Below are positions 3,436-40,969 of a DNA stretch of 40,969 nucleotides, piece after piece. The stretch lies in the NCBI GenBank assembly GCA_001820305.1, contig MHPC01000002.1, forward strand, positions 1 to 40,969, given 5' to 3'. Below the pieces are notes generated by a model. That model saw nothing but the letters and a program-made list of their open reading frames with translations. It ran no database searches and was not told the origin of the DNA. Position 1 is the first letter of the stretch. Each line of letters starts with the position of its first letter. Position numbers and translations under genes: made by a program. Source of the DNA: Candidatus Staskawiczbacteria bacterium RIFCSPLOWO2_01_FULL_43_17b. Its GTDB lineage: Bacteria > Patescibacteriota > Minisyncoccia > Minisyncoccales > Staskawiczbacteraceae.

Positions 3436-4552
3436 ATGGCAGGACAGCAAGAACATATAGACAAGCTGGGTGAACAGGTCCAATATTTGGTGGACCGGCT
3501 TTGATGTTGATGTAAAAGAGAAAGAATTAAAGGCATTAGAACTGCAAACGCAGGCGGTAGATTTTTGGAATGATCACCAGGTAGCTGCCACGATAAGCCA
3601 GAAAATTGCAGAGTTAAAGGAGGAATTGGAGGTGGCCGAATCTTTGAAGAAAGAATTTGCGGATTTAAAAGAATTGAATGAACTGGGGCAGGTTGATGAA
3701 GCTGCGGTTGAAAAGTTACAGGTAAAAGTGGCCAGGGAAGAAAGCAAGGCATTTTTATCGGGGAAGTATGATAAAAATAACGCCATTTTAGAAATTTTCA
3801 GCGGAGCCGGCGGGGTGGACGCGCAAGATTGGGCCACCATGTTGCTTAGGATGTACCAGCGTTATTGTGTGATTAAAGGCTGGAAGGCGGAAATTCTGCA
3901 CCAAAGTTTTGGTGAAGGTGGCGGGCCGGACGGGCGCATTGGCACCAAAAATGTGACGCTGGCAATTCAAGGCAAGTTTGCCTATGGCATGCTAAAAAAA
4001 GAAGCGGGAGTACACCGCCTGGTGCGCCAATCACCGTTTTCTTCCCAGAAACTGCGCCATACTTCGTTTGCCTTGGTGGAAGTGATGCCGGAAATTGCTC
4101 AAAGTGCGGAACTTGAAATAAAACCGGAAGACTTGCGGGTGGACACGTTTCGGGCTTCAGGGCCTGGCGGGCAGTATGTCAATAAAACCGAATCGGCCAT
4201 TCGCTTGACCCATATTCCCACGGGCATTGCCGTGGCTTCCCAGAGCGAACGTTCCCAGGGCCGTAACCGCGAAAACGCCATGAAAATTTTATATGCCAAA
4301 CTGCACGCGGCCCAGCAGCAAGAGCATAAAAAAGAACTAAAAGAAATTAAGGCCGCCCAGAATACTGGGCGAGCCTCGCCAGCGGGCGGGGAGAATAGTG
4401 CTTCATGGGGAAACCAGATCCGCAGCTACGTGTTACATCCGTACAAAATGGTAAAAGATTTGCGCACCCAGTATGAAACCAGCCAAGCCGAAGATGTGCT
4501 GGAAGGAAACTTAGAAGAATTCATCCAAGCAGAAGTAAAATACCATGATTAG
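3436..4552 (+). CDS. prfB: peptide chain release factor 2 with programmed +1 frameshift (join 3436..3501,3503..4552)
   Basis: short frame-0 ORF MAGQQEHIDKLGEQVQYLVDRL ends at canonical CTT TGA T shift site (3499-3504) preceded by SD-like TGGTGGA; +1 frame continues DVDVKEKELKALE...; GGQ (SGPGGQYVNKTES) and SPF (QSPFSSQ) motifs. Confidence 0.9.
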
Positions 4553-5225
4553 ATTTGAAAAGGTTACCAAAATTTACTTGCCCGAATCCGCCGTTTTGCA
4601 AGATGTTTCTTTTGAAGTAAAAAAGGGCGAGTTTGTTTCCATTGTGGGAAAATCGGGGGCGGGCAAATCCACCTTGATTAAAATGATTTTGGGGTTGGAA
4701 GAGCCCACCTACGGCGATGTCTTTTTTAACGGGGAAAACATTCATAAAGTCAGCCACAATGAATTGCAGAATATCCGGCGTAAAATCGGCGCGGTTTATC
4801 AGGATTACAAGTTGCTGCCCGCCAAAACCGTGTATGAGAACGTAGCCTATATCATGGAAATTGAAGGCAGGGTAAACGAAGATATTGCTTTGCAGGTTCC
4901 CAGGGTACTGGCGGCCATCGGGCTGAAAGAGAAAATGGATAACTTTCCCGAAGAACTTTCCGGCGGCGAACAGCAGCGCCTGGCCATTGCCCGGGCGTTA
5001 GCGGGGCAGCCGGAGGTGATTATTGCGGATGAGCCGACCGGGAATTTGGATCCGTATAATTCCCATGAAGTGCTGGCGCTGTTGGAAAAAATAAACCGGT
5101 CGGGGAAAACCGTTATCTTGGCCACGCACGATAGGGAAATTGTCAACAAATTAGCGCGAAGGGTGATTACCATAGAAGACGGGAGGGTGGTGAGGGACGA
5201 AGAAAAAGGAAGATTCATTATTTAG
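4545..5225 (+). CDS. ftsE: cell division ATP-binding protein FtsE (ABC ATPase)
   Basis: Walker A GKSGAGKST, signature LSGGEQQR, Walker B IIADEPTGNLD; overlaps prfB stop by 8 nt; followed by ftsX. Confidence 0.9.
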   Translation: MIRFEKVTKIYLPESAVLQDVSFEVKKGEFVSIVGKSGAGKSTLIKMILGLEEPTYGDVFFNGENIHKVSHNELQNIRRKIGAVYQDYKLLPAKTVYENVAYIMEIEGRVNEDIALQVPRVLAAIGLKEKMDNFPEELSGGEQQRLAIARALAGQPEVIIADEPTGNLDPYNSHEVLALLEKINRSGKTVILATHDREIVNKLARRVITIEDGRVVRDEEKGRFII

Positions 5226-5313
5226 GGTCTAGGGGATAGGGTCTAGGGTCTAGTAAAAACGTAACACGGCGTTACGGCTAAACCCTAACCCCTAGACCCT
5301 AAGCCCTCAAAAA
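5226..5313. repeat. intra-operon palindromic repeat (GGGTCTAGGG.../...CCCTAGACCCTAA arms, CCCTAA-type)
   Basis: imperfect inverted repeat arms of about 25 bp around central CGTAAC-ACGGC-GTTACG hairpin; fills ftsE-ftsX spacer exactly. Confidence 0.7.
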
Positions 5314-5314
5314 A

Positions 5315-6226
5315 ATGGCACATTTTTCAAGGGTATTGGGTTTCGCTTTTGCGCATTTTTACCGTAACAAAGGCACTTCCGTGGCCGCGATTTTTATTTT
5401 AACCATCACCACCCTGCTTATCACCGGGCTGTTTTTTGTGCGCGGCGCCAGTAATTACGTTATCGCTCAGGTGCAAAACAAAATTGACATTACCGCCTAT
5501 TTTAAAGCGGACGCGGCCGAAGATGATATTTTGCAGGTGCGCCAGGAATTGCTGCAAGATGGCGAAGTTGTCAGGGCGGTTGAATATGTTTCCCAAGACC
5601 AGGCTTTGGCCGATTTTAACGCAAAGCACCAAGATGATCCCACCTTTGAACGCGCACTTCAGGAAGTGGGGCAGAATCCCTTTTTGCCTTCACTGAATAT
5701 TATTACCAATGGGGCGGCGGCTGAATATGAGAATGTTGCCAATGTGCTGACCCAGGATAAATATGCCGTGCTAATAGAAGAGGTTGATTTTTCTGAAAAA
5801 AGGGATACTATTGAAAAGGTCTTTGCCATCACGGGTAGCATCACGCGGTTTGGGCTGGTGGCCGGGGTATTGCTTTTGCTGATTGCCATTTTAGTGGTTT
5901 TTAACACCATCAAACTGATTGTGGAAACTTCCGGGCAGGAAATCAGCACCATGCGTATTGTGGGGGCTTCAAACTGGTTTATTCGCGCGCCATTTGTTAT
6001 TCAAGGGGTTATTTTTGGGGCCATTTCGTTTGCCATTTGTTTTGTGGCAACCGCTTTGATAGCTTATCTTTTAGCTTCGGGGATTTCTGTTATCATGCCT
6101 GGATTTAATTTGTTCACATTTTTCCTTTCTAATATTTTGATTATCATGGTCATTCAACTGGCCGCCGGCGCGGGCCTGGCAAGTTTGTTAAGTTTTATGG
6201 TGGTGAGGAAGTATTTAAAAGTATAA
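5315..6226 (+). CDS. ftsX: cell division permease FtsX
   Basis: 303 aa, N-terminal TM, large periplasmic loop, three C-terminal TM helices; downstream of ftsE. Confidence 0.85.
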   Translation: MAHFSRVLGFAFAHFYRNKGTSVAAIFILTITTLLITGLFFVRGASNYVIAQVQNKIDITAYFKADAAEDDILQVRQELLQDGEVVRAVEYVSQDQALADFNAKHQDDPTFERALQEVGQNPFLPSLNIITNGAAAEYENVANVLTQDKYAVLIEEVDFSEKRDTIEKVFAITGSITRFGLVAGVLLLLIAILVVFNTIKLIVETSGQEISTMRIVGASNWFIRAPFVIQGVIFGAISFAICFVATALIAYLLASGISVIMPGFNLFTFFLSNILIIMVIQLAAGAGLASLLSFMVVRKYLKV

Positions 6227-6328
6227 ACCCTAAATACTAAATCCTAAACTCTAAATAAATTCAAAATCACAAAATTTAAAATCTAAAACACGTTTAGGAT
6301 TTAGAGTTTAGTGTTTATGGTTTAACAT
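6227..6328. repeat. intra-operon palindromic repeat (CTAAA-type; shares exact 25-mer TTTAGGATTTAGAGTTTAGTGTTTA with 37656-37760)
   Basis: arms AAACCCTAAATACTAAATCCTAAACTCTAAATAAA / TTTAGGATTTAGAGTTTAGTGTTTATGGTTT; fills gap between ftsX stop and tRNA-Gln. Confidence 0.7.
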
Positions 6329-6399
6329 TGCGGGATCGTCTAATGGTAGGACAACAGATTCTGGATCTGTTTATCTAGGTTCGAATCCTAGTCCCGCAG
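6329..6399 (+). tRNA. tRNA-Gln (anticodon CTG), no encoded CCA
   Basis: U1:A72 pair and G73 discriminator typical of bacterial tRNA-Gln; anticodon stem ACAGA/TCTGT loop TTCTGGA; T-arm CTAGG-TTCGAAT-CCTAG. Confidence 0.8.
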
Positions 6400-14205: not shown

Positions 14206-14541
14206 ATGAATAAAATAATAATAATAATAATACTATCATTGATTGGTTTGGCGCTTATTGTTGGGGCCGGTTTTTATTTTTACGCCAGCGTGTTTCCAAA
14301 ATCCCAGGTGGAAAATGTAAATGGGGGGCTTAACACCCAAATGCCCCAAGAAAACGATTCTGACGCCCCGACCGTCGAGGTAGAGGCAGAGGTTAGGACT
14401 GAGCCTGCCAGCGGCGGCGGGTTAACGATTTGCGCGGATCAATGCGGGGATGGCATTTGCCAGGACAGGGACGCGTATTGTAATAGTTTGAATTGTATTT
14501 GCATAGAAAACTCCAAAGAATGCCCACAAGATTGTAAATAA
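14206..14541 (+). CDS. small secreted/membrane-anchored Cys-rich protein (hypothetical)
   Basis: N-terminal hydrophobic IIIIIILSLIGLALIVGAGFYFY; C-terminal CADQCGDGICQ...CNSLNCICIENSKECPQDC; no obvious SD; starts 8 nt after tRNA 3' repeat. Confidence 0.5.
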   Translation: MNKIIIIIILSLIGLALIVGAGFYFYASVFPKSQVENVNGGLNTQMPQENDSDAPTVEVEAEVRTEPASGGGLTICADQCGDGICQDRDAYCNSLNCICIENSKECPQDCK

Positions 14542-14554
14542 TGGTTTAAAGTTT

Positions 14555-14593
14555 GCCGCCTTTTGCAACCATTGCAAAAGGCGGCGTTTTGTT
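14555..14593 (+). terminator. rho-independent terminator (GCCGCCTTTTGCAA-ccat-TTGCAAAAGGCGGC + GTTTTGTT)
   Basis: perfect 14-bp palindrome followed by T-rich run. Confidence 0.7.
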
Positions 14594-14603
14594 ATACAAT
14601 GAG

Positions 14604-14881
14604 CCTAGGGCGCCAGTTCATATTATAACTTATGGTAGCGAGTAAATTCGGGCAAGATTCAAGGCGCAACGAGGAAACGTATCCTCTGCGATACGTTGAC
14701 GAAGTTGCAACGATGAAGCTTGCCCGAATTCACTCGCCCAAAGGGAAACCAAAAAATGGCTGATTTCTTCGTTTTTCCTCGTCGGCGATACACTGCGGTA
14801 TCGCCTCCTCGGAAGAAACCTTGAAATCATCTCATTTTTTGGCTTCTACCATAAGTCCTAATATGAACTGGCACCCTAGAG
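14604..14881 (+). ncRNA. about 280-nt structured element B (second family member): closing inverted repeat CCTAGGGCGCCAGTTCATATTA...TAATATGAACTGGCACCCTAGAG, inner helix GAATTCGGGCAAG/CTTGCCCGAATTC, conserved ATTCAAGGCGC / GCAACGATGAAG / TGAAAT.AT.TCATTTTTTG
   Basis: alignment with element A shows conserved loops and covarying helices; intergenic between Cys-rich ORF and MBL-fold gene. Confidence 0.55.
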
Positions 14882-14922: not shown

Positions 14923-15669
14923 ATGGCCAAAGTGAAAGTCTTGGTGCAAGGGTACACGAATGCGGATTCAAAAGAAGTAATAGGACATGAAAAAACTTGT
15001 CCTACTATTACATTAGTGGTGGACAAGGGTATTGTCATGGTGGTGGATCCGGGGGCCTTGGATAATCAAAAAATCCTGGTTGACGCCCTGGCGCGCGAAG
15101 GCTATTTGGTTGACGATGTGAATATAGTTTGCATTACCCATTCCCACGCGCACCATTACATGAATGTGGGGATGTTTCAAAAAGCCAAAGTGTTGGAGTA
15201 TTTTGGCCTTTGGACCGGAGGAATGGTTCAAGACTGGCAGGAAAATTTCAGTGATGATATCCAGATTTTAAAAACCCCGGGGCATGATTATAGCGGGATT
15301 TCGCTTTTTGTAAAAACCCATGAAGGGGTGGTGGCCATTTGTGGAGATGTGTTTTGGAATGAAGACGGCCCCGAGTTTGATATGTATGCCTCTGACCAGA
15401 AGGTATTAAAGCACAGCCGCCAGCTGGTCACACAGATGTCTCATTGGATTATTCCCGGACACGGGGGCATGTATAAAACGAAGCAGTTGTCTTCAATCCC
15501 ACCAAGCGGGGCGGCCAAATCGGAAGCGTCAGTAGCGGGAAGCTGCAAAAAGTGCCACCGGCTGTTTAAAAAAATAACCGATAAATGCATTTGCCAGGAT
15601 TGGTTATGTTATCACTGCTGCGAATGCGAAGCCGACTGCAAGGTGTGCAATTGCAAGGTAAGAAGGTAG
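14923..15669 (+). CDS. metallo-beta-lactamase fold hydrolase with Cys-rich C-terminal tail
   Basis: HxHxDH motif ITHSHAHHY; C-terminal CKKCHRLFKKITDKCICQDWLCYHCCECEADCKVCNCKV; start moved to ATG 14923 because upstream part of the 14821 ORF lies inside element B. Confidence 0.65.
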   Translation: MAKVKVLVQGYTNADSKEVIGHEKTCPTITLVVDKGIVMVVDPGALDNQKILVDALAREGYLVDDVNIVCITHSHAHHYMNVGMFQKAKVLEYFGLWTGGMVQDWQENFSDDIQILKTPGHDYSGISLFVKTHEGVVAICGDVFWNEDGPEFDMYASDQKVLKHSRQLVTQMSHWIIPGHGGMYKTKQLSSIPPSGAAKSEASVAGSCKKCHRLFKKITDKCICQDWLCYHCCECEADCKVCNCKVRR

Positions 15670-15760
15670 TTTATTGGGGTCTAGCGTCTAGGGTATAGGG
15701 TATAGTAAAACGGCGTACGTCGTGACTAGCCCCTAGCCCCTATCCCCTAAACCCTCAAGA
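15670..15760. repeat. intra-operon palindromic repeat (GGGGTCTAGCGTCTAGGGTATAGGG.../...CCCCTAGCCCCTATCCCCTAAACCC)
   Basis: same architecture as 5226-5313 (TAGGG unit arms, central CGTACG hairpin); fills spacer between MBL gene stop and DUF167 ATG. Confidence 0.65.
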
Positions 15761-15982
15761 ATGAAGATCATTATCAAAGCCAAGCCGGGTTCAAGAGAAG
15801 ACAAGATAGAAAAAGTAGATGAAGCTAATTACATTGTTTATGTGACGGCTCCGCCCATTGACGGCAAGGCCAACGCGGCTATTATTAAGTTACTGGCGGC
15901 GCATTTTGACGTGAGCCAATCGTTGATAGAAATCATTTCCGGCCACATGGCGCGGGTGAAAGTAGTAGAAATAAATAACTAA
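15761..15982 (+). CDS. DUF167/YggU (UPF0235) family protein
   Basis: 73 aa; IIIKAKPGSREDKIE...YIVYVTAPPIDGKANAAIIKLLAAHF pattern typical of YggU. Confidence 0.65.
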   Translation: MKIIIKAKPGSREDKIEKVDEANYIVYVTAPPIDGKANAAIIKLLAAHFDVSQSLIEIISGHMARVKVVEINN

Positions 15983-19896: not shown

Positions 19897-19912
19897 GAAT
19901 GTAAAATGCAAA

Positions 19913-19998
19913 TATCAAAATGGAAAATGACAGTTCAAAATTCAAAATGATTCGGTTGTAAAGTTTTACATTTTACATTGTCACTTTCCATTTTGATT
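19913..19998 (+). terminator. long imperfect palindrome (ATCAAAATGGAAAATGACAG...TTGTCACTTTCCATTTTGAT) followed by T-run; probable terminator
   Basis: about 20-bp arms, then TTTTTAAAC; between dehydrogenase stop and trxB start. Confidence 0.4.
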
Positions 19999-20017
19999 TT
20001 TAAACTTTAAATTATTT

Positions 20018-21389: not shown

Positions 21390-22616
21390 ATGTCAAAGAT
21401 AACAGAAATTATTGCGAAAGAAATTAAAGATTCGCGCGGGAAACCGACCGTAGAGGTGCATTTAACTACCAAAGATGGGACATTTGTGGCTAGTTGCCCT
21501 TCAGGGGCTTCAACGGGAATTCATGAGGCTTTGGAATTGCGCGATGATGATGGGCGGGGAGTTAGCAAGGCTATTGCCAATGTCAATGAAATTATTGCGC
21601 CAAAGTTAATTGGCAAAGACCCCAGCAACCAGAAAGAATTAGATGAATTGATGTTGGCGCTTGACGGCACGCCTAATAAATCAAAGTTAGGAGCCAATGC
21701 AATACTTCCTGTATCGATGGCTGTTTGTAGATCCGGCGCCGCAGCGAAGAAAATATCGCTCTATCAGCATTTGGCTGATATTGCGGGATTTAAGATTCAA
21801 GATTTAGGATTTAAGATGCCTTTGCCAAGCTTTAACATTTTAAACGGCGGGGCGCATGCTAAAAATGAATTGGAATTGCAAGAGTTTATGGTGGTGCCCA
21901 TGAAAAAAACCTTTCAGGAAAATTTGGTGCTGGGAAGCGAAGTGTTTAATAAATTAACAGAACTGTTAAAACAAACTCCTGCTGGCGTGCCGGAAATGGG
22001 TGACGAAGGGGGATATGCTCCGCAAATTGCCACGGCTGAACAGGCGTTGATGCTGATTAAAAGCGCTATTGGTGACCACAAAGATGTAAAAATTGCACTG
22101 GACTGCGCCGCTTCGGAATTTTACCGTGATGGAAAATATGAAGTGGAAGAAGGAAAAGCCTTGAGCCGCAATGAAATGATTGATTTTTACAAAGATATTG
22201 TAGTGCGCTATCCGATTGTTTCTATTGAAGATGCCTTTGCCGAAGAAGATTGGAATGGATTCCAGGAAATCCGCAAAGCGTTGCCCGAAACCATTATTAT
22301 TGGTGACGATTTGACGACAACCAATGTGATAAAAATTAAGGAAGCGGAAAGCAAAAAAGCCTGCAATGGCATTATTATCAAGGTCAACCAAATTGGCACG
22401 GTTTCTGAAACCATTGACGCGGTAAAACTGGCGCAAAGCTATGGTTGGAAAATTATGGTCAGCCACAGAAGCGGAGAAACCATGGACAGCTTTATTGCAG
22501 ACTTGGCGGTTGGCGTTGGCGCAGACTTTATCAAATCAGGGGCATACACCAAAGACGTGCGCATTGTAAAATATGATAGGCTTTTGGCGATTGAACAGGA
22601 GTTAAATAAGAAATAA
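21390..22616 (+). CDS. eno: enolase
   Basis: N-terminal ITEIIAKEIKDSRGKPTVEV, SGASTGIHEALELRD, IKVNQIGT(V)SET signature. Confidence 0.9.
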   Translation: MSKITEIIAKEIKDSRGKPTVEVHLTTKDGTFVASCPSGASTGIHEALELRDDDGRGVSKAIANVNEIIAPKLIGKDPSNQKELDELMLALDGTPNKSKLGANAILPVSMAVCRSGAAAKKISLYQHLADIAGFKIQDLGFKMPLPSFNILNGGAHAKNELELQEFMVVPMKKTFQENLVLGSEVFNKLTELLKQTPAGVPEMGDEGGYAPQIATAEQALMLIKSAIGDHKDVKIALDCAASEFYRDGKYEVEEGKALSRNEMIDFYKDIVVRYPIVSIEDAFAEEDWNGFQEIRKALPETIIIGDDLTTTNVIKIKEAESKKACNGIIIKVNQIGTVSETIDAVKLAQSYGWKIMVSHRSGETMDSFIADLAVGVGADFIKSGAYTKDVRIVKYDRLLAIEQELNKK

Positions 22617-22985: not shown

Positions 22986-23011
22986 AGTCCTGTAGTCCGA
23001 ACCACAGGACT
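22986..23011 (+). promoter_or_regulatory. hairpin AGTCCTGT-AGTCCGAACC-ACAGGACT 8 nt upstream of TrpR-like gene; inverted partner at 23389-23414
   Basis: 26-nt sequences at both ends of the gene are reverse complements of each other (1 mismatch). Confidence 0.5.
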
Positions 23012-23018
23012 AAAATAA

Positions 23019-23372
23019 ATGACAGTCTTTCACCTAAATAAACTGCCAAAAGAAAAACGCATCCAGATGATTGGCGAGTTTTACGATATGGTGGATTCGC
23101 TAAAAGACAGAAATGAAGTGCGGTTATTTTTTAAGAGTCTTTTGAGTGCCGATGAAATAGCTAGTCTTATGAGACGGATAGAAATTGCCATGTTGTTGTC
23201 TTCTGGCCAGAAATACGAGGATATTATCAAAACCATGAAAGTGGGGCGTGATAAAATTTCCAGTGTGCATAAGGCGCTTCTGCAAGATGACAGCGGTTAT
23301 GCTATAATCGTGGAAAGATTAATTGAAAATCGGAAGAAGTGGGTGGAAAAAGTGAAAAAGGATAAAAAATAA
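23019..23372 (+). CDS. TrpR/YerC-YecD-like helix-turn-helix protein (paralog 1)
   Basis: 117 aa; LPKEKRIQMIGEFYDMVDSL...ADEIASLMRRIEIAMLL...KISSVHKALL; paralog at 29769-30200. Confidence 0.6.
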   Translation: MTVFHLNKLPKEKRIQMIGEFYDMVDSLKDRNEVRLFFKSLLSADEIASLMRRIEIAMLLSSGQKYEDIIKTMKVGRDKISSVHKALLQDDSGYAIIVERLIENRKKWVEKVKKDKK

Positions 23373-23388
23373 ATGCCAAAGTAACCGT

Positions 23389-23414
23389 AGTCCCGTGGTT
23401 CGGACTACAGGACT
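23389..23414 (+). promoter_or_regulatory. inverted copy of the 22986 hairpin, 16 nt downstream of gene stop
   Basis: AGTCCCGTGGTTCGGACTACAGGACT = reverse complement of upstream hairpin. Confidence 0.5.
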
Positions 23415-26733: not shown

Positions 26734-26811
26734 TTATCCCGATCAATTTAGCAAAGCTAAATTGATACGGGATCCCGTATCAAAATTTATACTAAATTTT
26801 TATCGGGATAG
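26734..26811. mobile_element. MITE-like hairpin element copy 2 (TTATCCCGAT-caATTTAGCAAAGCTAAAT-TGATACGGGATCCCGTATCA-...-ATCGGGATAG), no cargo
   Basis: same palindromes and terminal inverted repeats as 13728-13877. Confidence 0.55.
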
Positions 26812-27277: not shown

Positions 27278-29710
27278 ATGAAAAATGTTTTGTGGTTTAA
27301 AGAGCTAGGCATTAAAGATGTGCCGCAGGTGGGCGGGAAAAATGCCTCGCTTGGTGAAATGTATAATAATTTGCTAAGTAAGGGAGTTAATTTGGCAAAC
27401 GGTTTTGCCACCACCTCCCAGGCTTATTTTATTTTTCTGGAAAAAAGCGGCTTGTCTTTGCAAATCCAGAACATTTTAAAAGATATTAATGTGCATGACC
27501 TGGCCGCACTGCAAGAAAAAGGCAAGAAAGTGCGCCAGCTTATTTTGAGTGTTAATTTGCAGCCCGCCCTTCAAGAAGAAATCATCGCGGCTTACCGCCA
27601 GCTGTCGGATATGTACGGGTCAAAAAATACCGATGTGGCAGTAAGGTCTTCGGCCACTGCCGAAGACCTGCCCGGAGCCAGTTTTGCCGGCCAACAGGAA
27701 ACGTTTTTAAATGTTACCGGGGAACAAAATGTATTGGAGGCGGTGAAAAAATGCTTTGCATCTTTGTTCACTGACCGGGCCATTGCTTACCGCCAGGAAA
27801 TGGGGTTTGGGCATACCAAAGTGGGCTTATCGGCTGGCATCCAAAAAATGGTGCGCTCCGACGTGGGCGCCAGCGGCGTGATGTTTTCCTGTGACACGGA
27901 AAGCGGTTTTGGCGACGTGGTGCTCATTAACGCCAGCTATGGTTTGGGTGAAAATGTGGTGTTGGGAAGAGTGGAGCCGGACCAATATTACGTGTTTGAG
28001 CCTACCCTAAAAACGGGGCACAAACCCATTATCCAAAAAAAAATCGGGTCAAAGCTTTTGACCATGGTTTACACCAAAGACCCAAAAAACCCGATTAAAA
28101 ACACCAAAACCTTGCCAAAAAACCAGCAATCATTTGTGTTGGCAGATGAAGAAATTTTGCAGCTGGCTAAGTGGTCAATGCTGGTGGAAGCCCACTACCA
28201 AAAACCCATGGACATGGAATGGGCCAAAGACGGTATTGACGGCAAATTGTATATTGTCCAAGCTAGGCCCGAAACCGTACAAAGCAAACGGAACGTGAAT
28301 GTGCTAGAAGATTACGTTTTGCAAACACCCAAAACCCAACACCTAACACCCATTGCTAGGGGCATGAGTGTCGGGGGAAAAATCGGATCCGGCAAGGCCC
28401 ATAAAATTTTAAGCCCGAAGGATATTAATAATTTCAAAAAAGGGGAAGTGCTGGTAACCGGCATGACAGACCCGGACTGGGTGCCGGCCATGAAACTGGC
28501 CAGCGCGATTATTACCGACCAGGGCGGTCGCACGGCTCACGCGGCCATTGTTTCCCGTGAATTGGGAATTCCCTGCATTGTGGGCGCGGGCAATGCCACT
28601 AAAACCGTAAAAACCGGCCAGGAAATTACCGTGGATTGTTCCGGCGGAGAAGAGGGCTTTGCTTACGAAGGCATTATTCCGTTTGAAATAAAAAAAGTAG
28701 ATATTTCAAAATTAAAAAAGCCCAAAACTAAAATCGCCATGAACTTGGCAGACCCTTCCCAAGCCTTTAATTTAAGCTTTATTCCCAATGACGGCGTGGG
28801 CCTAGCGCGGGAAGAATTTATTATTGCCAACACCATCAAAATTCACCCCAACGCCCTGATAGATTACAAAAAATTAAAGCCGGCGCTGCGTAAAAAAATT
28901 GACGCGCTGACGCTGGGGTATGAAAATAAGATTGATTTTTACGTTGATAAATTGGCCGAAGGGGTGGGGAAAATTGGCGCGGCATTTTACCCAAAACAGG
29001 TGATAGTGCGATTTTCTGATTTTAAAACCAACGAATACCGTCAGTTGGTAGGCGGCGAGCTTTACGAAATGCATGAAGAAAATCCCATGATGGGTTTTCG
29101 CGGAGCTTCCCGGTATTATCACGAAAGTTTCAAGCAGGCCTTTATGTTGGAATGCCAGGCCATTAAAAAAGTGCGGGAGGAATTTGGCATTGATAACGTG
29201 CAAGTGATGATTCCCATGTGCCGGACTATTGAAGAGGGCCAGAAGGTGCTGGAAGTCATGAAGGAAGCCGGTTTGGTGAAAGGTGAGAACCCTTCGACAG
29301 GCTCAGGGCAAGTGGCCTTGAAAGTATATGTCATGTGCGAACTTCCGGCTAACGTGGTTTTAGCAGAACAGTTTTTGGAAATGTTTGACGGCTTTTCCAT
29401 TGGGTCTAATGATTTAACCCAGTTTACCCTGGGCCTGGACCGCGATAATTCGGAAATGTCCGGCGTTGCCAACGAAAAAAATGATGCGGTGAAAGAATTA
29501 ATTAAAGAGGCGGTGCGGGTTTGTAAAAAAATGGGGAAATATTCGGGCATTTGCGGAGACGCGCCTTCCACATTCCTTGAATTTACCAAATTTTTGGTAG
29601 ACCAGGGCATTGAATCAATTTCTTTGTCATCAGACGCCATTATTAAAACTACGATGGCGGTACTTGAGTATGAAAAGGAAAAATCCGCAAATACAATTAA
29701 TAGGACGTAG
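27278..29710 (+). CDS. ppsA: phosphoenolpyruvate synthase (pyruvate, water dikinase) carrying in-frame insertion
   Basis: N-terminal FKELGIKDVPQVGGKNASLGEM, phosphohistidine domain GGRTAHAAIVSRELGIPCIVG, C-terminal PEP-utilising domain; 810 aa. Confidence 0.9.
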   Translation: MKNVLWFKELGIKDVPQVGGKNASLGEMYNNLLSKGVNLANGFATTSQAYFIFLEKSGLSLQIQNILKDINVHDLAALQEKGKKVRQLILSVNLQPALQEEIIAAYRQLSDMYGSKNTDVAVRSSATAEDLPGASFAGQQETFLNVTGEQNVLEAVKKCFASLFTDRAIAYRQEMGFGHTKVGLSAGIQKMVRSDVGASGVMFSCDTESGFGDVVLINASYGLGENVVLGRVEPDQYYVFEPTLKTGHKPIIQKKIGSKLLTMVYTKDPKNPIKNTKTLPKNQQSFVLADEEILQLAKWSMLVEAHYQKPMDMEWAKDGIDGKLYIVQARPETVQSKRNVNVLEDYVLQTPKTQHLTPIARGMSVGGKIGSGKAHKILSPKDINNFKKGEVLVTGMTDPDWVPAMKLASAIITDQGGRTAHAAIVSRELGIPCIVGAGNATKTVKTGQEITVDCSGGEEGFAYEGIIPFEIKKVDISKLKKPKTKIAMNLADPSQAFNLSFIPNDGVGLAREEFIIANTIKIHPNALIDYKKLKPALRKKIDALTLGYENKIDFYVDKLAEGVGKIGAAFYPKQVIVRFSDFKTNEYRQLVGGELYEMHEENPMMGFRGASRYYHESFKQAFMLECQAIKKVREEFGIDNVQVMIPMCRTIEEGQKVLEVMKEAGLVKGENPSTGSGQVALKVYVMCELPANVVLAEQFLEMFDGFSIGSNDLTQFTLGLDRDNSEMSGVANEKNDAVKELIKEAVRVCKKMGKYSGICGDAPSTFLEFTKFLVDQGIESISLSSDAIIKTTMAVLEYEKEKSANTINRT
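29291..29312 (+). repeat. in-frame insertion element CCTTCGACAGGCTCAGGGCAAG (PSTGSGQV)
   Basis: splits conserved ...GLVKGEN|...|ALKVYVMCELPANV block of PpsA. Confidence 0.6.
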
Positions 29711-29735: not shown

Positions 29736-29761
29736 ACACCCATGCACCAACGCATGGGTGT
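29736..29761 (+). promoter_or_regulatory. hairpin ACACCCATGC-ACCAAC-GCATGGGTGT 7 nt upstream of TrpR-like paralog 2; inverted, wobble-paired partner at 30211-30239
   Basis: 10-bp perfect stem; downstream copy ACACTTATGCATTGGTGCGTGGGTACACT is its approximate reverse complement. Confidence 0.45.
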
Positions 29762-29768
29762 AAGAAAT

Positions 29769-30200
29769 ATGCCAACATTCCACCTAAATAGTTTACCAAA
29801 AGAAAAGAGAATTCAAATGATTGGCGAGTTTTATGATACGGTTGATTCACTGAAAGACAGGCAAGAGGTTCGCTCATTTTTCAAATCATTGCTAGCCGCC
29901 GATGAAATTGCTGCGCTCATGAGGAGGATTGAAGTGGCAATGCTTCTATCTGCTGAATATAGCTACGATAAAATCAAGAAAATGTTGGGGGTGGGGAATA
30001 ATAAAATTTCTAGTGTGCATAAAGCGTTGCTTCAAGACGATAGTGGATATGCTATGATTGTTAAAAGATTGATTGAGGACAGGAAAAATAGGTTAATAAA
30101 AATAAAAAAAGAAGGGAAGGGTACAATAGACGAAAAAGAATTAGAAAGGGAGGCGCTACTATTTACTCCGTCGTCTGCGGCGGTCAGGAGAAAGAAATAG
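29769..30200 (+). CDS. TrpR/YerC-YecD-like helix-turn-helix protein (paralog 2, longer C-terminal tail)
   Basis: about 70% identical to 23019-23372 over first 110 aa (MPTFHLNSLPKEKRIQMIGEFYDTVDSLKDRQEV...); start set to ATG 29769 by homology. Confidence 0.6.
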   Translation: MPTFHLNSLPKEKRIQMIGEFYDTVDSLKDRQEVRSFFKSLLAADEIAALMRRIEVAMLLSAEYSYDKIKKMLGVGNNKISSVHKALLQDDSGYAMIVKRLIEDRKNRLIKIKKEGKGTIDEKELEREALLFTPSSAAVRRKK

Positions 30201-35634: not shown

Positions 35635-35767
35635 AACAGTTCATTGAATCACCGGCCTGTCGGTGAAACGGTAGCTTCTGCAAGGAGTGAAAAGAAGCGC
35701 CGAGCCGCTCCCGGATTGCTGTGCAAGGCATCCGGGAGTTTTTAATTACTGCGAATTAGAATATGTT

Positions 35768-35811
35768 AAAAAAATGAGCCGTTTCGCTTTTGCGAAACGG
35801 CTCATTTTTTT
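35768..35811. terminator. bidirectional terminator (A7-TGAGCCGTTTCGC-tttt-GCGAAACGGCTCA-T7) between convergent genes
   Basis: perfect 13-bp stem flanked by A-run and T-run. Confidence 0.8.
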
Positions 35812-35812
35812 A

Positions 35813-36607
35813 CTAGACCCTAGACCCTTCTTTTTTCTGCTCTTCCTCGAATTTCTTAAAGGCTTTGAAAATGGGCTCCATTTTGCCCTCTACAATATCT
35901 TCCAAATTATGCCAGGATTTTTCTATCCTATGATCGGTAATTCTATTTTGCGGGTAATTATAGGTTCGGGTTTTTTCAGAACGCTTGGCCCAGCCAATTT
36001 GCTCCCGGCGCGCTTGGGTTAATTTTGATGAATCGGCTTCTTGCTGGGCTTTCAAAAGGCGCGCGCCCAAAAGCCCCATGGCATTTTCTTTATTTTGCAG
36101 CTGGCTTCGTTCTGTTTGACTGGTCACCACAAGACCGCTGGGGATATGGGTGATTCTAATGGCAGATTCAGTTTTATTTACGTGTTGGCCGCCAGCGCCT
36201 GAAGAGCGGTAAGTGTCTATTTTAAGATCAGAAGGATTTATGGTAATGTCCATTTTGGTGGGTTTTTCTAAAACGGCAATGGTTACCGTTGAAGTGTGTA
36301 CACGCCCTTGTTTTTCGGTGGCTGGAATACGCTGAACCCGGTGCACCCCGCTTTCATATTGCATGGCTTCAAATGCGCCCGAGCCGGAAAGTTCAAACAC
36401 GATTTCTTTATAACCCCCCACATCTGAAGTGTTGGAATCGATGACTTTATTGCCCCACCCTTGGCTAGTGGCATATTTTGAATACATCCGGTATAAATCA
36501 CGCACAAAAAGCCCAGCTTCGTCTCCACCGGTCCCCGCGCGAATTTCAATAATCACGGATTGCTTTCCGCCCCCACCCGTTTGTTGTTGATATTCTTGAT
36601 AATCCAT
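35813..36607 (-). CDS. prfA: peptide chain release factor 1 lacking the N-terminal domain 1 (264 aa)
   Basis: PAT tripeptide (RIPATEKQGRVHTS), GGQ (SGAGGQHVNKTES), begins at EIRAGTGGDEAGLF (domain 2); in-frame TGA 5 codons upstream of ATG and only about 75 nt to next gene. Confidence 0.8.
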   Translation of the reverse strand: MDYQEYQQQTGGGGKQSVIIEIRAGTGGDEAGLFVRDLYRMYSKYATSQGWGNKVIDSNTSDVGGYKEIVFELSGSGAFEAMQYESGVHRVQRIPATEKQGRVHTSTVTIAVLEKPTKMDITINPSDLKIDTYRSSGAGGQHVNKTESAIRITHIPSGLVVTSQTERSQLQNKENAMGLLGARLLKAQQEADSSKLTQARREQIGWAKRSEKTRTYNYPQNRITDHRIEKSWHNLEDIVEGKMEPIFKAFKKFEEEQKKEGSRV

Positions 36608-36954: not shown

Positions 36955-37655
36955 TGACATCCGAATCTACTAATAACGTAAAACTTAACGCGGATGATAT
37001 GGCCAAAGCCGGCCTGAATTTTGGTCATACCGTTTCCAAGCTTCATCCTAAAATGAAGGCTTTTGTACAGGGCGTTAAAAGCAATGTCCACATGATTGAT
37101 ATGGAAAAGTCCGCCAAAGAATTTGATTTGGCTTTGAAATTTATTTCCCAATTAGTTGCCGAAGGAAAAACATTGCTGTTTGTGGGAACAAAAATACAGG
37201 CAAAAAATTTAACCAAAGTAGCGGCGGTGGAAAGCGGTATGCCATATGTTACCGAACGGTGGCTGGGTGGAGCCTTTACTAATTTTGAAACCATTTCAAA
37301 ACGGGTGGCTCACTTGAAAGACTTGGAAAGCAAAAAAGCCAAAGGTGAATTTGAGAAATATACCAAATATGAACAGATGATGCTTAATGAAGAAATCGCT
37401 TCGCTGACCACGAAATTTGAAGGCATCAAAAATATGGCAAAGTTGCCGGAAGCCGTTTTAATTTTAGATTTAAAAAAAGACATTGCCGTAGCGCGTGAAG
37501 CAAAACGCAAGGGTATTAAAATTGTGGGCATTGTAGACACCAATATTGACCCGGCTCTGGCCGATTACGCCATTTATGCCAATGATGACGCCGTTTCTTC
37601 TATTGGATACGTGCTGGAAAAAATCAAAGAAACTATATTAAGTGCGAAACCCTAA
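36954..37655 (+). CDS. rpsB: 30S ribosomal protein S2
   Basis: AGLNFGHTVSKLHPKMKAFV..., LLFVGTK, conserved S2 blocks. Confidence 0.9.
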   Translation: MTSESTNNVKLNADDMAKAGLNFGHTVSKLHPKMKAFVQGVKSNVHMIDMEKSAKEFDLALKFISQLVAEGKTLLFVGTKIQAKNLTKVAAVESGMPYVTERWLGGAFTNFETISKRVAHLKDLESKKAKGEFEKYTKYEQMMLNEEIASLTTKFEGIKNMAKLPEAVLILDLKKDIAVAREAKRKGIKIVGIVDTNIDPALADYAIYANDDAVSSIGYVLEKIKETILSAKP

Positions 37656-37760
37656 ATCCGAAACCCTAAACTCTAAATAAATAAAAAATTCAAAATAAAA
37701 AACGTTTTGAGTTTAAATATTTGAGTTTATTTAGGATTTAGAGTTTAGTGTTTAGAATTT
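37656..37760. repeat. intra-operon palindromic repeat (CTAAA-type; exact 25-mer shared with 6227-6328)
   Basis: CCCTAAATCCGAAACCCTAAACTCTAAATAAAT...TTTAGGATTTAGAGTTTAGTGTTTA fills rpsB-tsf spacer. Confidence 0.7.
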
Positions 37761-38210
37761 ATGATTAATATCGAAGATATTAAGAGATTGAGAGATGAAA
37801 CCGGTGCCTCGCCGGTGAAAATTAAAAAGGCCATGGAAGAGTCTGGGGAAGATGTTCAAAAAGCCAAGGAATTGTTGAAAAGCTGGGGAGCGGTAAAAGC
37901 CGGTGAAAAAGGAGGGCGCGAAACCCATGACGGTGTGATTGATTTTTATATCCATCCTAATGCCAAGTCCGGCGTACTACTGGATATCCGTTGTGAAACT
38001 GATTTTGTGGCAAAAAACCCCGATTTTAAAAGCCTGGCTCACGAAATTTGCCTGCACATTGCCGCCATGCAGCCTGAAAATGTTGAAGCCTTGCTGGCGC
38101 AATCCTGGGTAAAAGACGATGCCAAAACCATTAAAAGTTTGATTGAAGAAACAGTAGCTAAAATAGGGGAGAATATTACTGTGAAACAGTTTGCACGCTT
38201 TGCGATATAA
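37761..38210 (+). CDS. tsf: elongation factor Ts (short form)
   Basis: UBA-like N-terminus IKRLRDETGASPVKIKKAMEESGEDVQKAKELLK followed by dimerisation core. Confidence 0.85.
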   Translation: MINIEDIKRLRDETGASPVKIKKAMEESGEDVQKAKELLKSWGAVKAGEKGGRETHDGVIDFYIHPNAKSGVLLDIRCETDFVAKNPDFKSLAHEICLHIAAMQPENVEALLAQSWVKDDAKTIKSLIEETVAKIGENITVKQFARFAI

Positions 38211-38818: not shown

Positions 38819-39276
38819 GCCATCTTGAAATGAGGGAGGTAAGTAGCAAGTGAAAACCAAGCACTCATTTTTGTACATTAAGCCAGGGGGTGGATTGCGT
38901 GTCGTTGGCACGAGCGGCGGCACCTTTTTCGGTTGCGCCTAGGGTCAGGGTAACGGGAAAAGAACCAGTAATAATCGTGACTGGACAGTTCACCTCTTGT
39001 AATTTTCAGGGAAAAAGGAATGGGCTGGCCAGCCTATTGGCGCTCCGGGTTCAGTTTCGTTAACTGACGACGAGGTCTTCCACGCGGCCCATTTCCTCTT
39101 TTTTCAATGTGTCCAAAAATGAGTGCTCGGTAAAGTAACTTGTTTAAAATTAGTTTTTGAAAGTTGTTTCGAATAAGCTTAATACGTGCTTAACGTATAT
39201 ATTATTTGAGAGTTTGATCCTAGCTCAGGGTGAACGCTGGAAATGTGGATACCGGCATGCAAGTCAAGGGGCCCAG

Positions 39277-39543
39277 GGATGTAGACTCTGAACGCGAATC
39301 TAAATTGAGAAGCGAAAAAATGTGATAATTTCAATGTTTCTTGCGACGAAATGTAGTGACTACTACATTGAGGAGTAAAAACGAAGAAATTAGCCATTTT
39401 TTCGCTTCCCTTCGGGCTTTCATATTTTGATTATCTTCTGCGTCTTCGGAGCTTAACGATGCCTACAGCATCGCTTCGCTCCTCAGTTCTTGAATATAAT
39501 CAAAATATGGAAGCTCAATTGATTCTGTTCAGAGTCTACATCC
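39277..39543 (+). other. about 267-nt intervening sequence in 16S helix 6 closed by perfect 17-bp stem GGATGTAGACTCTGAAC/GTTCAGAGTCTACATCC
   Basis: E. coli has about 35 nt here; AT-rich interior with several CGCTTC-containing hairpins; no ORF. Confidence 0.6.
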
Positions 39544-39933
39544 TTAAGGCACCGGCGAACGGCTTAGTAACACGTGGATACATACCGCAAAGTGGAGCAC
39601 AGCTCGTCGAAAGACGGGGTAATTCTCCATAATCCCGCAAGGGTAAACACGCAAGTGGCTTTGTGAATGGTCCGCGGTCTATCAGCTAGTTGGTGAGGTA
39701 ATGGCTCACCAAGGCTATGACGGATAGGGGGCGTGAGAGCGCGACCCCCAAGAATGGCACTGCGACACGGGCCATACTCCTACGGGAGGCTGCAGTCGAG
39801 AATCTTCCACAATGGACGAAAGTCTGATGGAGCGACATTTCGTGATGGATGAAGCCCTTCGGGGTGTAAACATCTTTTATGCGGGAAAAAATTATTGATT
39901 GTACCGCATGAATAAGGGGGTACTAATTCTGTG

Positions 39934-40815
39934 ACCCGCAAGGGTGGTGCAGAATATTCGCAGTAATGCGGATAAAGCAAACTTGGCTCATATGCTGGAA
40001 CACCTTGTGTGTCCGCTAACTCCTTTCATTTTTGAAAGGCGCGCACAAGACAATCAGCAGGGAAGCTGATATATGTTATAATAAACATATATTTAGCCCC
40101 TCAGAGACTGAATCCGAAAGGATGAAATGGTGGCATATAACCCACCATTATACGCCGAGCTCCTGGTTTTTAATCAGGATGATGGGATAGTCCAGTGGCA
40201 CATTATCGTATATGGAAACAAAGGCGCGAGCAATATTAATTGGATTAATTCTTGGAGATGGATATTTAACAAAGCCGTTTGGTAGCAGTACCAAATCTAT
40301 GCTGGATATTAAATATCATGAGAAATCTTTAGAGTATCTTCAATGGATGCATAAAGAGTTACAAGAATTACAACTTTCTGAAATCAAAAAGAAAAAAGGG
40401 GCTTCCCAATATCGGTTTTATACTAAAACCAGAGATGATATTGGCCGGCTTCATGAGATATTTTATCCTGGCGGAGTCAAACATATTCCAAAAGGTATTA
40501 CTAAATATCTTAAAGATCCGTTAACTTTGGCCGTGTGGTATCAAGATGACGGAAAGCTAGATTTCAGGAGCAAATATCATTCCAATTCATTATTTGCGAC
40601 ATATTGTTTTCCCTACGATGAATGTGAATTATTAGCTAATGCATTGCGTGTAAATTTTGACTTAGATGTGCGAGTCTGCAAATGTCAAATGCGTGGAAAA
40701 ATGTATTATTCTTTATATGTGACCTCAAAAAGCATGGATTTATTCATGCAGATTATTGAGCCACATATACAGAAATGCTTTTACTATAAATTAGTAAAGT
40801 ATCGCAAATAACTAG
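39934..40815 (+). mobile_element. intron/intervening sequence in 16S (within GTG|CCAGCAG, E. coli about 515) encoding a LAGLIDADG homing endonuclease
   Basis: conserved 16S sequence resumes at GCCAGCAGTAGCGGTAATAC (40815); exact boundaries ambiguous by 1 nt because of G at both junctions. Confidence 0.7.
40212..40811 (+). CDS. LAGLIDADG homing endonuclease (double-motif)
   Basis: LIGLILGDGYL and LAVWYQDDGKL motifs; 199 aa; stop 4 nt before 3' exon. Confidence 0.85.
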   Translation: METKARAILIGLILGDGYLTKPFGSSTKSMLDIKYHEKSLEYLQWMHKELQELQLSEIKKKKGASQYRFYTKTRDDIGRLHEIFYPGGVKHIPKGITKYLKDPLTLAVWYQDDGKLDFRSKYHSNSLFATYCFPYDECELLANALRVNFDLDVRVCKCQMRGKMYYSLYVTSKSMDLFMQIIEPHIQKCFYYKLVKYRK

Positions 40816-40969
40816 CCAGCAGTAGCGGTAATACAGAACCCCCGAGCGTTACCCGGATTTATTGGGCGTAAAGGGTTGGTAGGTGGCGTAGTAAGTTCAA
40901 GATTAAACCTCATCGGCTTAACCTTTGAGCTGTTTTGAATACTGCTACACTAAGAGGGCGTTAGAGGCA

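Follow-up and report, generated by a model that had tools for sequence, protein, structure and literature searches.

What are the long palindromes that fill the spacers between co-oriented genes in Candidatus Staskawiczbacteria bacterium RIFCSPLOWO2_01_FULL_43_17b, a member of the Candidate Phyla Radiation (CPR)? We analyzed positions 1 to 40,969 of contig MHPC01000002.1 (assembly GCA_001820305.1; this whole stretch of 40,969 nt is called the window), in which such palindromes occupy five spacers, among them ftsE/ftsX and rpsB/tsf; we refer to them as E1 to E5. Our best explanation, which we hold with a probability of roughly 0.7, is that they are gene-less miniatures of a widespread class of selfish, heptamer-armed hairpins whose full-length members carry a PF05635/TIGR02436 gene. 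Such an element would consist of two inverted arrays, each of about four to five degenerate heptamers, that pair into a long stem with regular interruptions and enclose a variable center; in full-length members, the center would hold a gene of about 120 codons for a "23S rRNA intervening sequence protein" (S23p, Avd-like). Several families with unrelated units would have inserted recently between a stop codon and the next start codon or tRNA in this genome.

A first-pass annotation of the sequence had described imperfect palindromes in four of the spacers. All four lie where it placed them, with minimum free energy (MFE) z-scores of −2.7 to −6.1 against shuffled sequences, but E4 (19897–20017) and a sixth element, upstream of the window between gatC and gatA, had been overlooked (Table 1). 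In each of E1 to E5, complementary termini enclose the whole insertion as one long interrupted stem. The elements are 85–120 nt long; five spacers of the window are filled, and with gatC/gatA there are six elements in 45.6 kb. Pfam identified the flanking genes as those for the ABC ATPase FtsE, FtsX, a metallo-beta-lactamase-fold protein (MBL), DUF167, S2, and EF-Ts, and ARAGORN identified the tRNA-Gln; an Rfam search of the window at the gathering threshold returned tRNAs and 16S rRNA only. The intra-operonic location proposed by the annotation holds, as the elements sit within co-oriented gene strings including ftsEX, rpsB-tsf, and gatCA, and no hairpin element was found within any gene of the window.

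Table 1. Heptamer-armed elements of the window and its upstream flank, with their sites in relatives (z-scores are relative to shuffled sequences; L numbers denote collected loci)
Feature	Coordinates	Strand	Setting	Predicted fold	Spacer here	Spacer in relatives
E1, type-A hairpin element	5223–5314	.	fills ftsE/ftsX spacer 5226–5314	MFE −45.5 kcal/mol, z −5.8; paired 5224–5307	89 nt	11 nt in L007 (FtsX 76% identical)
E2, B-family element	6224–6328	+	ftsX/tRNA-Gln spacer 6227–6328	MFE −24.6 kcal/mol, z −5.6; stem 6224–6324	102 nt	TAA + 3 nt + tRNA in L007
E3, type-A element	15670–15760	.	between MBL gene and DUF167 gene	MFE −35.0 kcal/mol, z −2.7; stem about 15669–15762	91 nt	TAA + 6 nt + ATG in L007
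E4, AT-rich heptamer-armed hairpin	19897–20017	.	2-hydroxyacid dehydrogenase/pyridine-nucleotide disulphide oxidoreductase spacer	z −3.1; stem 19910–20001		
E5, B-family element	37647–37760	+	rpsB/tsf spacer 37656–37760	MFE −28.0 kcal/mol, z −6.1; stem 37653–37761	105 nt	5 nt in L130 (S2 89%); 2 nt in L131 (S2 85%)
Sixth element, AATTTTG units	L001 2490–2585, 2 kb upstream of window		fills gatC/gatA			
Partial type-A copy	35807–35828	−	reads AGGGTCTAGGGTCTAGTAAAAA on the minus strand			

The arms have a period of seven. Period-7 autocorrelation is 0.55–0.62 in the five element spacers (0.55 in E4) versus 0.19–0.34 in the other 24 spacers that reach 30 nt, and Tandem Repeats Finder (TRF) detects arrays of this period in each arm of the five elements. 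The arms are thus degenerate 7-nt tandem repeats and therefore not hexameric telomere repeats; the label "telomere-like" in the first-pass annotation does not fit a unit of seven rather than six, nor the three families here that lack G-tracts. Four families with unrelated units coexist in this genome: TAGGGTC/TAGGGTA, CTAAATC, AATGCAA, and AATTTTG. TAGGGNNTAGGG with at most one mismatch occurs 14 times against 1.5 expected, with 13 of the 14 occurrences inside the elements, and the 25-mer TTTAGGATTTAGAGTTTAGTGTTTA, which had been reported as shared by the copies downstream of ftsX and rpsB, is indeed exact at 6293–6317 and 37730–37754 (chance expectation, 0 copies).

The elements are fitted closely to their neighbors. 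In E1, the ftsE stop codon TAG (5223–5225) doubles as the first TAG of the left arm, (TAGGGTC/TAGGGGA)×4.4 by TRF; the right arm is (CTAAACC..)×4.3, the center consists of TAAAAA plus a small hairpin (CGTAAC-ACGG-GTTACG), and the ftsX ATG follows at 5315. The arm of E2 begins with the ftsX stop TAA (6224–6226), and the 5' end of tRNA-Gln lies at 6329; its left arm is AACCCTAAATACTAAATCCTAAACTCTAAATAAA, its right arm is the 25-mer, and TRF gives the array units as CTAAATA ×4 and GTTTAGA ×3.7. E3, with arms GGGGTCTAGCGTCTAGGGTATAGGGTATAG and CTAGCCCCTAGCCCCTATCCCCTAAACCCT (TRF units GGGTATA ×4.1 and CTAGCCC ×3.4), lies between the MBL stop TAG (15667–15669) and the DUF167 ATG (15761), and E4 has arms of (AATGCAA)×7.6 and (TTTTACA)×4.6 by TRF. 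In E5, the rpsB stop TAA (37653–37655) sits within the first arm unit and the tsf ATG is at 37761; the left arm includes CCTAAACTCTAAATAAAT, the inner arms retain the remnants CAAAA and TTTTGAGTTT, and the right arm carries the second copy of the 25-mer.

The partial fifth copy noted by the first-pass annotation is also real. Its 22 nt at 35807–35828 are 100% complementary to 5238–5259 in E1, and the right arm is absent. The copy makes up the final codons and stop (TAG, 35815–35813) of a release-factor-like gene, so that in this lineage the C-terminal codons and stop of the 264-aa product come from a (TAGGGTC)2 partial element; the same gene end in the relative L129 lacks the motif. An A-run/T-run terminator hairpin follows at 35767–35812 (−33.6 kcal/mol, z −10.5). 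The gene itself (35813–36607, minus strand), with a partial PCRF and an RF-1 domain, is a second and shorter release-factor-like gene opposite the main release factor gene at 3470–4552. Period-7 arrays also occur within two genes, at 21787–21817 in enolase (GATTTAA ×4.4) and at 28322–28352 in pyruvate phosphate dikinase (CAAAACC ×4.3); both are single, in frame, and without an inverted partner, with units that resemble B-family arms.

At four junctions, relatives have empty sites of 2–11 nt (Table 1), and the hairpins are therefore lineage-specific insertions. The ftsE/ftsX site is also empty in L008, where it reads TAA-TTAAAAAATT-ATGGCA, and the stops of ftsE and the MBL gene are TAA in the relative versus the first TAG of the arm here. 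In the closest relative, L129 (S2 92%), the rpsB/tsf spacer of 91 nt is occupied by an unrelated hairpin of 9-nt units. The elements of the window are thus recent whole-unit insertions placed exactly at stop/start junctions of co-oriented genes. The genome comes from groundwater. Contigs with the exact FtsX protein number 22, among them GCA_035291005.1 and a Rifle metagenome; the closest named homologs of the protein are from Staskawiczbacteria. Six independent strain assemblies that are 99.9% identical show zero change within E1 to E3, so phase-variable copy number is not seen at this scale. An assembly artifact was ruled out, as the elements are the same in all six assemblies and such elements also occur in cultured Calothrix and Nostoc plasmids and in a Ramlibacter isolate.

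Relatives of the elements and the gene they carry

Identical arms recur at unrelated loci. In another Staskawiczbacteria species (L073), the atpB/atpE spacer holds an element that matches E3 exactly over a 30-nt left arm and a 21-nt right end around a different center, and an element between secY and adk in Levyibacteria has 21 nt in common with E1. The first-pass annotation had called for a census of the 25-mer; a metagenome scan found it in at least 120 contigs from peat, lakes, sediments, and groundwater, in many gene contexts with many different flanks. Together, the empty sites in relatives and the identical arms at unrelated loci favor the selfish type of repeat, one of the options that the annotation had named.

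Among the matches listed, 38 B-family copies without a gene can be aligned with E2 and E5; they retain the arms and the inner CAAAA/TTTTG units and lie in 38 distinct contexts. Where the flanks of B copies among these matches could be called on both sides, 18 were ++, 9 were −−, 3 were convergent, and 1 was divergent, mostly with no more than 30 nt between element and neighboring open reading frames (ORFs). The number of inner-arm units varies among B-family copies, and the two arms of one element differ in unit order; the arms have probably been remodeled after insertion by slippage at the level of whole units. Some B-family loops contain nested short palindromes: the G+C-rich CCTGCCTACCGGCAGGCAGG in L180, L274, L182, L196, L198, L202, and L213, and a second one, CGACCAATCCTATTCGGATTGGTG, in L247 and L257. 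Small dispersed repeats nested within cyanobacterial heptamer arrays are on record.

Other B-family copies carry a gene. Those with a loop of about 400 nt enclose a 119-aa ORF (L188, L189, L248, and L252; a pseudogene in L269) that scores 43.9–44.6 bits against PF05635 (cutoff 33.8) and 61.5 bits against TIGR02436, "four helix bundle protein" (cutoff 24). The layout is upstream stop, left arm (..AAACCCTAAACTCTAAATAAACTCAA), ATG, ORF, right arm (TTTTGAGTTT..GGATTTG plus the 25-mer), and next gene, and the first codons of the ORF are still CAAAACN heptamers. Many other B-family copies among the matches listed retain only the decayed 3' end of the ORF. TAGGG-type arms likewise surround PF05635 genes (115–123 bits) in Chitinophagaceae, Planctomycetota, and Gemmatimonadales (L010, L078, and L084).

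The association also holds when approached from the gene. All ten PF05635 genes in 2.04 Mb of collected loci are flanked by period-7 arrays; the unselected bystanders among these ten have arrays on both flanks (4/4), and in an independent look-up of homologs from a protein database, four of four carry heptamer arrays on a flank or close by. One PF05635 gene lies between priA and alaS with AGCGTAN and CTAAACG arrays, one on each side, and the same arm family is found at another locus, around a PF05635 gene between prmC and a penicillin-binding protein gene in an Aerophobetes genome. Two genes of a Phycisphaerae genome have a CCCTA-type right arm in one case and a B-family left arm in the other. 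Among cultured Calothrix and Nostoc plasmids, two of three genes have an array at either side, and the third has one at a single side. The "S23 ribosomal protein" gene of a Calothrix brevissima plasmid (L303) lies between AGGGTGT ×4.3 and CTACACC ×4.3, and its arm/center junction, ...TAGTAAAAA (...GTAGTAAAAA), is that of E1; the PF05635 gene of a Nostoc punctiforme plasmid lies between TCAGGAG and CTGACTC arrays.

To gauge breadth, we scanned one genome per prokaryotic species for the pattern TAGGGNNTAGGG-N(20-50)-CCCTANNCCCTA. At least 120 stretches matched, against about 17 expected in the whole collection (our estimate, assuming uniform composition). The matches listed come from Chloroflexota, Acidobacteriota, Planctomycetota, Gemmatimonadota, Proteobacteria, Nitrospira, Bacteroidota, Elusimicrobia, spirochaetes, Selenomonadaceae, cyanobacteria, several CPR phyla, and two archaeal metagenome-assembled genomes, and the two variable bases of the TAGGGNN unit change from genome to genome. 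Among these matches, 72 contexts are tandem, 24 convergent, and 10 divergent (n = 106, crude ORF calls). ORFs that enter an arm typically stop at its TAG 1–4, with the next start a few tens of bases on. In viral contigs, 34 stretches carry the pattern versus 6 for an arm-swapped control of equal composition, which indicates that the G-arm-first polarity is real.

The G+C-rich viral contig L133 (IMGVR_UViG_3300025932_000023) has three TAGGG-type hairpins within an HK97-like module, at 521–583 (terminase/portal), 3703–3774 (after the major capsid gene), and 4797–4868 (before the major tail gene). Gene roles in this contig were assigned by reading ORF translations rather than by a domain search, and the same reading revealed no mobility gene in the head/tail module.

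Sequence motifs other than the period do not unite the class. In all collected loci, we paired TRF arrays whose units are reverse complements and that lie within 70 nt of each other, and found 199 such inverted pairs at period 7, compared to 2 each at periods 5, 6, and 8 and 6 at period 9. Unrelated units, among them CGGGGTT, TAATGAG, AGCAATC, GCAGACA, AGTTCAT, and ATTTACG, are found in dozens of bystander hairpins; the common property is therefore the architecture with its 7-nt period and not telomere-like sequence, G-tracts, or stop codons. As a general principle, stops in all three frames were rejected: they hold for TAGGGNN, CCCTAAA, and TAACTGA, but CGGGGTT, GTGGGTG, GCAGACA, and CGCTATG have none. 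The G-quadruplex was rejected on the same footing, since four or more G3 tracts at 7-nt spacing occur in the arms of E1 and E3 only, and E2, E4, and E5 have no G3 tracts.

Besides period 7, only period 9 exceeds two inverted pairs. Hairpins of 9-nt units occur at L008 1165–1287, L073 3560–3680, and L129 3700–3790. Arms of the form CTAATTAAC.../...TTAGAATAA are common to two Staskawiczbacteria relatives, and CGTTATAAT.../...ACGACTAAA arms make up the filler of rpsB/tsf in L129.

Competing explanations

How could a compact operon tolerate such insertions? The elements would be co-transcribed with their operons, and fold-back of the RNA would hold the stop and the next start close together at the base of the stem, which would explain tolerance in tight operons. 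Initiation at a start codon brought close in this way would be compatible with this genome because most of its genes lack a Shine-Dalgarno sequence anyway; for the same reason, we rejected the missing Shine-Dalgarno sequence as a sign of special coupling. By analogy with rRNA intervening sequences (IVS), RNase III would cut the interrupted stems of 25–30 bp, so that the outcome would be intercistronic processing rather than termination, and at E2 such cleavage would release tRNA-Gln. The window elements are thus probably RNase III substrates by this analogy. The first-pass annotation had offered RNase sites among several possible functions; given the homology with RNase III-excised rRNA IVS, processing would be the most likely consequence at the RNA level.

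If the elements are gene-less miniatures of the hairpin class, such miniatures also invade the tightest operon junctions in reduced CPR genomes. Predictions are intercistronic RNase III processing, binding of a pentamer to heptamer arrays, and master copies in complete genomes. The elements could serve as markers of recent insertion and as a handle on the origin of IVS, and they call for caution when operons and terminators are predicted in CPR or other phyla.

Several observations weigh against this explanation. The window contains no PF05635 gene, so the descent of its copies is argued from shared arms (B family) or from architecture (type A), and it is architecture alone that ties E4 and the gatC/gatA element to the class. 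Four pairs of filled and empty sites show no consistent target-site duplication, and the termini (TAAA...TTTA and TAG...CTA) are very simple; with no recognizable transposase either, the case for mobility is one of distribution rather than mechanism. The B-family stem shows 0 compensatory pairs among 40 copies. Because the arms are invariant across these copies, covariation speaks neither for nor against selection on the fold itself. The link to the gene is not uniform: another ORF intervenes between gene and left array for one of the Phycisphaerae genes, and the PF05635 gene on a Nostoc PCC 7120 plasmid has an array on one side only. Finally, gene contexts in foreign loci are crude longest-ORF calls, and several locus sets were chosen by the motifs under analysis; the PF05635 genes that were unselected or came from the independent look-up provide cleaner evidence.

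A bolder extension would make the heptamer hairpins and a pentameric PF05635 protein one ancient, cross-phylum mobile class without a classical transposase. No gene other than that for the PF05635 four-helix-bundle protein travels with the arms, and the structure of the Xanthomonas campestris homolog (2GSC) has five chains. Speculatively, the protein would recognize the 7-nt register with about one subunit per unit and four to five units per arm, and it would promote spread possibly via an RNA or single-stranded intermediate. If true, this would account for the origin of rRNA IVS, for the excess of heptamers (the short tandemly repeated repetitive [STRR] sequences and GGGNATC), and for the role of PF05635. 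We consider this extension doubtful.

The hairpins could instead be local heptanucleotide simple sequence repeats (SSRs), grown by slippage with a template-switched inverted copy and acting as G-quadruplex (G4) or hairpin switches, with PF05635 an occasional passenger. In many prokaryotes, heptamers are reported to outnumber other long simple repeats, and slippage has been proposed as the cause (as cited in PMC4679880 and PMC4692102). This would fit the arms of E1 and E3, which match G3N4G3N4G3N4G3, as well as arm differences that consist of unit order rather than point changes, the varying number of inner-arm units across B copies and Coxiella strains, and the unrelated hairpins that rpsB/tsf holds in two close relatives. 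However, irregular arms of 25–30 nt are identical across unrelated loci and species, which makes independent origin impossible; E2, E4, and E5 lack G-tracts, copy number is constant in six strain assemblies, and arrays lie at or close to the flanks of all PF05635 genes examined. A purely local origin is therefore improbable, although slippage is probably in part complementary to descent from mobile hairpins.

Functional terminators or attenuators, kept by selection to set the ratio of upstream to downstream expression and without any mobility, would account for very stable hairpins at gene 3' ends and for the rarity of divergent contexts (10 of 106 for the TAGGG type and 1 of 31 for the B type, among the matches listed). 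The partial copy at 35807–35828 adjoins a true terminator, and the small central hairpin of E1 with TTTTTA resembles a terminator on the minus strand. Yet the sense strand has no T-run after the hairpins, whose tails read CAAAAAAATG, AACATTGCGG, CAAGAATG, and AATTTATG, unlike the stem-plus-T-run of this genome's real terminators; no element was called as an intrinsic terminator on the plus strand, while canonical ones were called elsewhere in the window. The first-pass annotation was right on this point. Moreover, the elements part pairs expected to be co-expressed (ftsE/ftsX, rpsB/tsf, gatC/gatA, atpB/atpE, and secY/adk), spacers of 2–11 nt suffice in close relatives, and the same sequence recurs in dozens of unrelated contexts. 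We regard a terminator role as a poor prospect.

Repetitive extragenic palindromic (REP) units are imperfect palindromes of 20–40 nt with a GTAG or CGTC head, mobilized by the REP-associated tyrosine transposase (RAYT, a Y1 transposase). That the elements are palindromes of this type or of its composites (bacterial interspersed mosaic elements [BIMEs] and REPINs; the first-pass annotation had written "REP/BIME-like"), mobilized in trans by a RAYT and stabilizing mRNA 3' ends, is very improbable: they are extragenic, palindromic, multi-copy (six in 45.6 kb), at gene 3' ends within operons, and like REPs vary by species on a common architecture, but they are 85–120 nt long with 7-nt periodic arms that begin TAGGG, TAAACC, or AATG, neither end of the window copies has the GTAG/CGTC head, the window has no RAYT gene, and a single RAYT with sequence specificity would not be expected to act on all the unrelated units that coexist here. 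All-versus-all blastp of 2451 ORFs from 120 element-bearing loci (among the matches listed) gave housekeeping clusters only, for example ABC ATPases and the CPR spc operon, with no recurrent RAYT or other transposase; PF05635 travels with the elements instead.

Other features of the window

The start of the 16S rRNA gene (39202–40969) spreads model positions 1–659 over 1768 nt, with about 1.1 kb inserted. An ORF within it (40212–40811) is a LAGLIDADG_2 homing endonuclease (113.6 bits), a pattern typical of introns in CPR rRNA genes.

A complex region surrounds tRNA-Ile (13786–13860) at 13749–14820. The 3' end of the tRNA is duplicated (13835–13870 and 14172–14207, 92% match), 29-nt inverted repeats lie at 13899–13927 and 14142–14170, and 81-nt direct repeats lie at 14001–14081 and 14707–14787. 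Highly structured spacers (13861–14205, z −13.9; 14542–14820, z −8.4) flank a 111-aa ORF (14206–14541) that has no Pfam match. The 48 nt at 14736–14783 are 88% complementary to 39370–39417 in the 16S insertion region, and four strain assemblies (L001, L003, L004, and L005) differ from the window at positions 14070 and 14080. The region looks like an integrated small element or intron-related sequence. The 33-nt sequence GCTAAATTGATACGGGATCCCGTATCAAAATTT, whose core is a 22-nt palindrome, occurs in two perfect copies, one just 5' of tRNA-Ile (13749–13781) and one in the 767-nt spacer ahead of the pyruvate phosphate dikinase gene (26756–26788).

An 835-aa protein (6635–9142) has a major-vault-protein shoulder domain (67.9 bits) and vault repeats, which is unusual in bacteria, and is present in all strain copies. 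Two Trp-repressor-family paralogs (23019–23372 and 29742–30200) share a 124-nt DNA repeat (23011–23134 and 29761–29884, 76%). The first lies between 27-nt inverted repeats (22986–23012 and 23388–23414, 96%) and may be a small mobile cassette.

Comparison with known systems

Two kinds of site-specific structure were considered and rejected: the ends of the elements have no integron attC core sites (R''/R', RYYYAAC ... GTTRRRY) and their neighbors are core housekeeping genes, and a hairpin-telomere junction was rejected on the same grounds, with no core sites and housekeeping neighbors. [quoted passage not shown] The window elements differ in their heptamer arms and in a parent that carries a four-helix-bundle gene rather than a transposase; ORF-bearing relatives encode the PF05635 protein only.

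The STRR sequences of heterocystous cyanobacteria and the TAACTGA repeats of Beggiatoaceae and cyanobacteria are intergenic direct heptamer arrays (PMC4679880). Like the elements described here, they often lie by start or stop codons, can carry stops in three frames, and are patchy across phyla. Unlike them, they are described as direct arrays rather than as inverted hairpin pairs around a gene, and no protein partner has been proposed for STRR.

Closer still are the G-rich heptamers of Rehm et al. (2015), GGGAATC in Xanthomonas and GGGGA(C/T)T in Nostoc, which are mostly intergenic and transcribed, prefer about four units, lie near the neighbor's stop codon, and are rare between divergent genes (PMC4692102). 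Xanthomonas genomes have 70–75 convergent inverted heptamer pairs each, which are capable of forming stem-loops (PMC4692102). These repeats were read as G-quadruplex simple repeats without a link to PF05635 or mobility (PMC4692102). The type-A arms here are canonical G4 motifs like those repeats, but G-tracts are absent from three of this genome's four families.

The closest likeness is to rRNA IVS, which are known from the 23S rRNA of Coxiella, Leptospira, Salmonella, and Alphaproteobacteria. The Coxiella 23S IVS is a selfish 428-nt stem-loop in helix 45 with a decaying S23p ORF in its loop (Warrier et al. 2016, PMC4990558). Two to three tandem heptamers (GACAGAT), their number strain-dependent, lie just 5' of the ATG, and RNase III removes the IVS, making its 5' cut at the first heptamer repeat (PMC4990558). 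In CPR bacteria, rRNA genes contain 23S_rRNA_IVP ORFs, and many short insertions that lack a gene occupy known IVS sites in them. In the literature that we searched, we found no publication that joins PF05635 genes, inverted heptamer arrays, and gene-less intergenic copies; the Coxiella description is the sole partial link.

The window elements differ from IVS in lying in spacers of protein and tRNA genes rather than in helices 9, 25, or 45 of 23S rRNA or, as in CPR, in 16S rRNA, and in having longer arms of four to eight heptamers. All of them are outside rRNA, and the 16S gene of the window has the LAGLIDADG insertion and no heptamer hairpin. Excision by RNase III is established for IVS and would extend to the window elements by analogy. 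The shared features are a stem-loop insertion with complementary ends, an S23p/PF05635 ORF in full-length forms, short gene-less forms, stem heptamers by the ORF start, decay of the ORF, sporadic horizontal spread, and tolerance by the host via fold-back. Classical 23S rRNA IVS would accordingly be members of the class that landed in rRNA. Altogether, this suggests that three puzzles of the literature are perhaps one class: rRNA IVS with their orphan S23p gene, the excess of heptanucleotide repeats, and a very large family of four-helix-bundle proteins of no known function.

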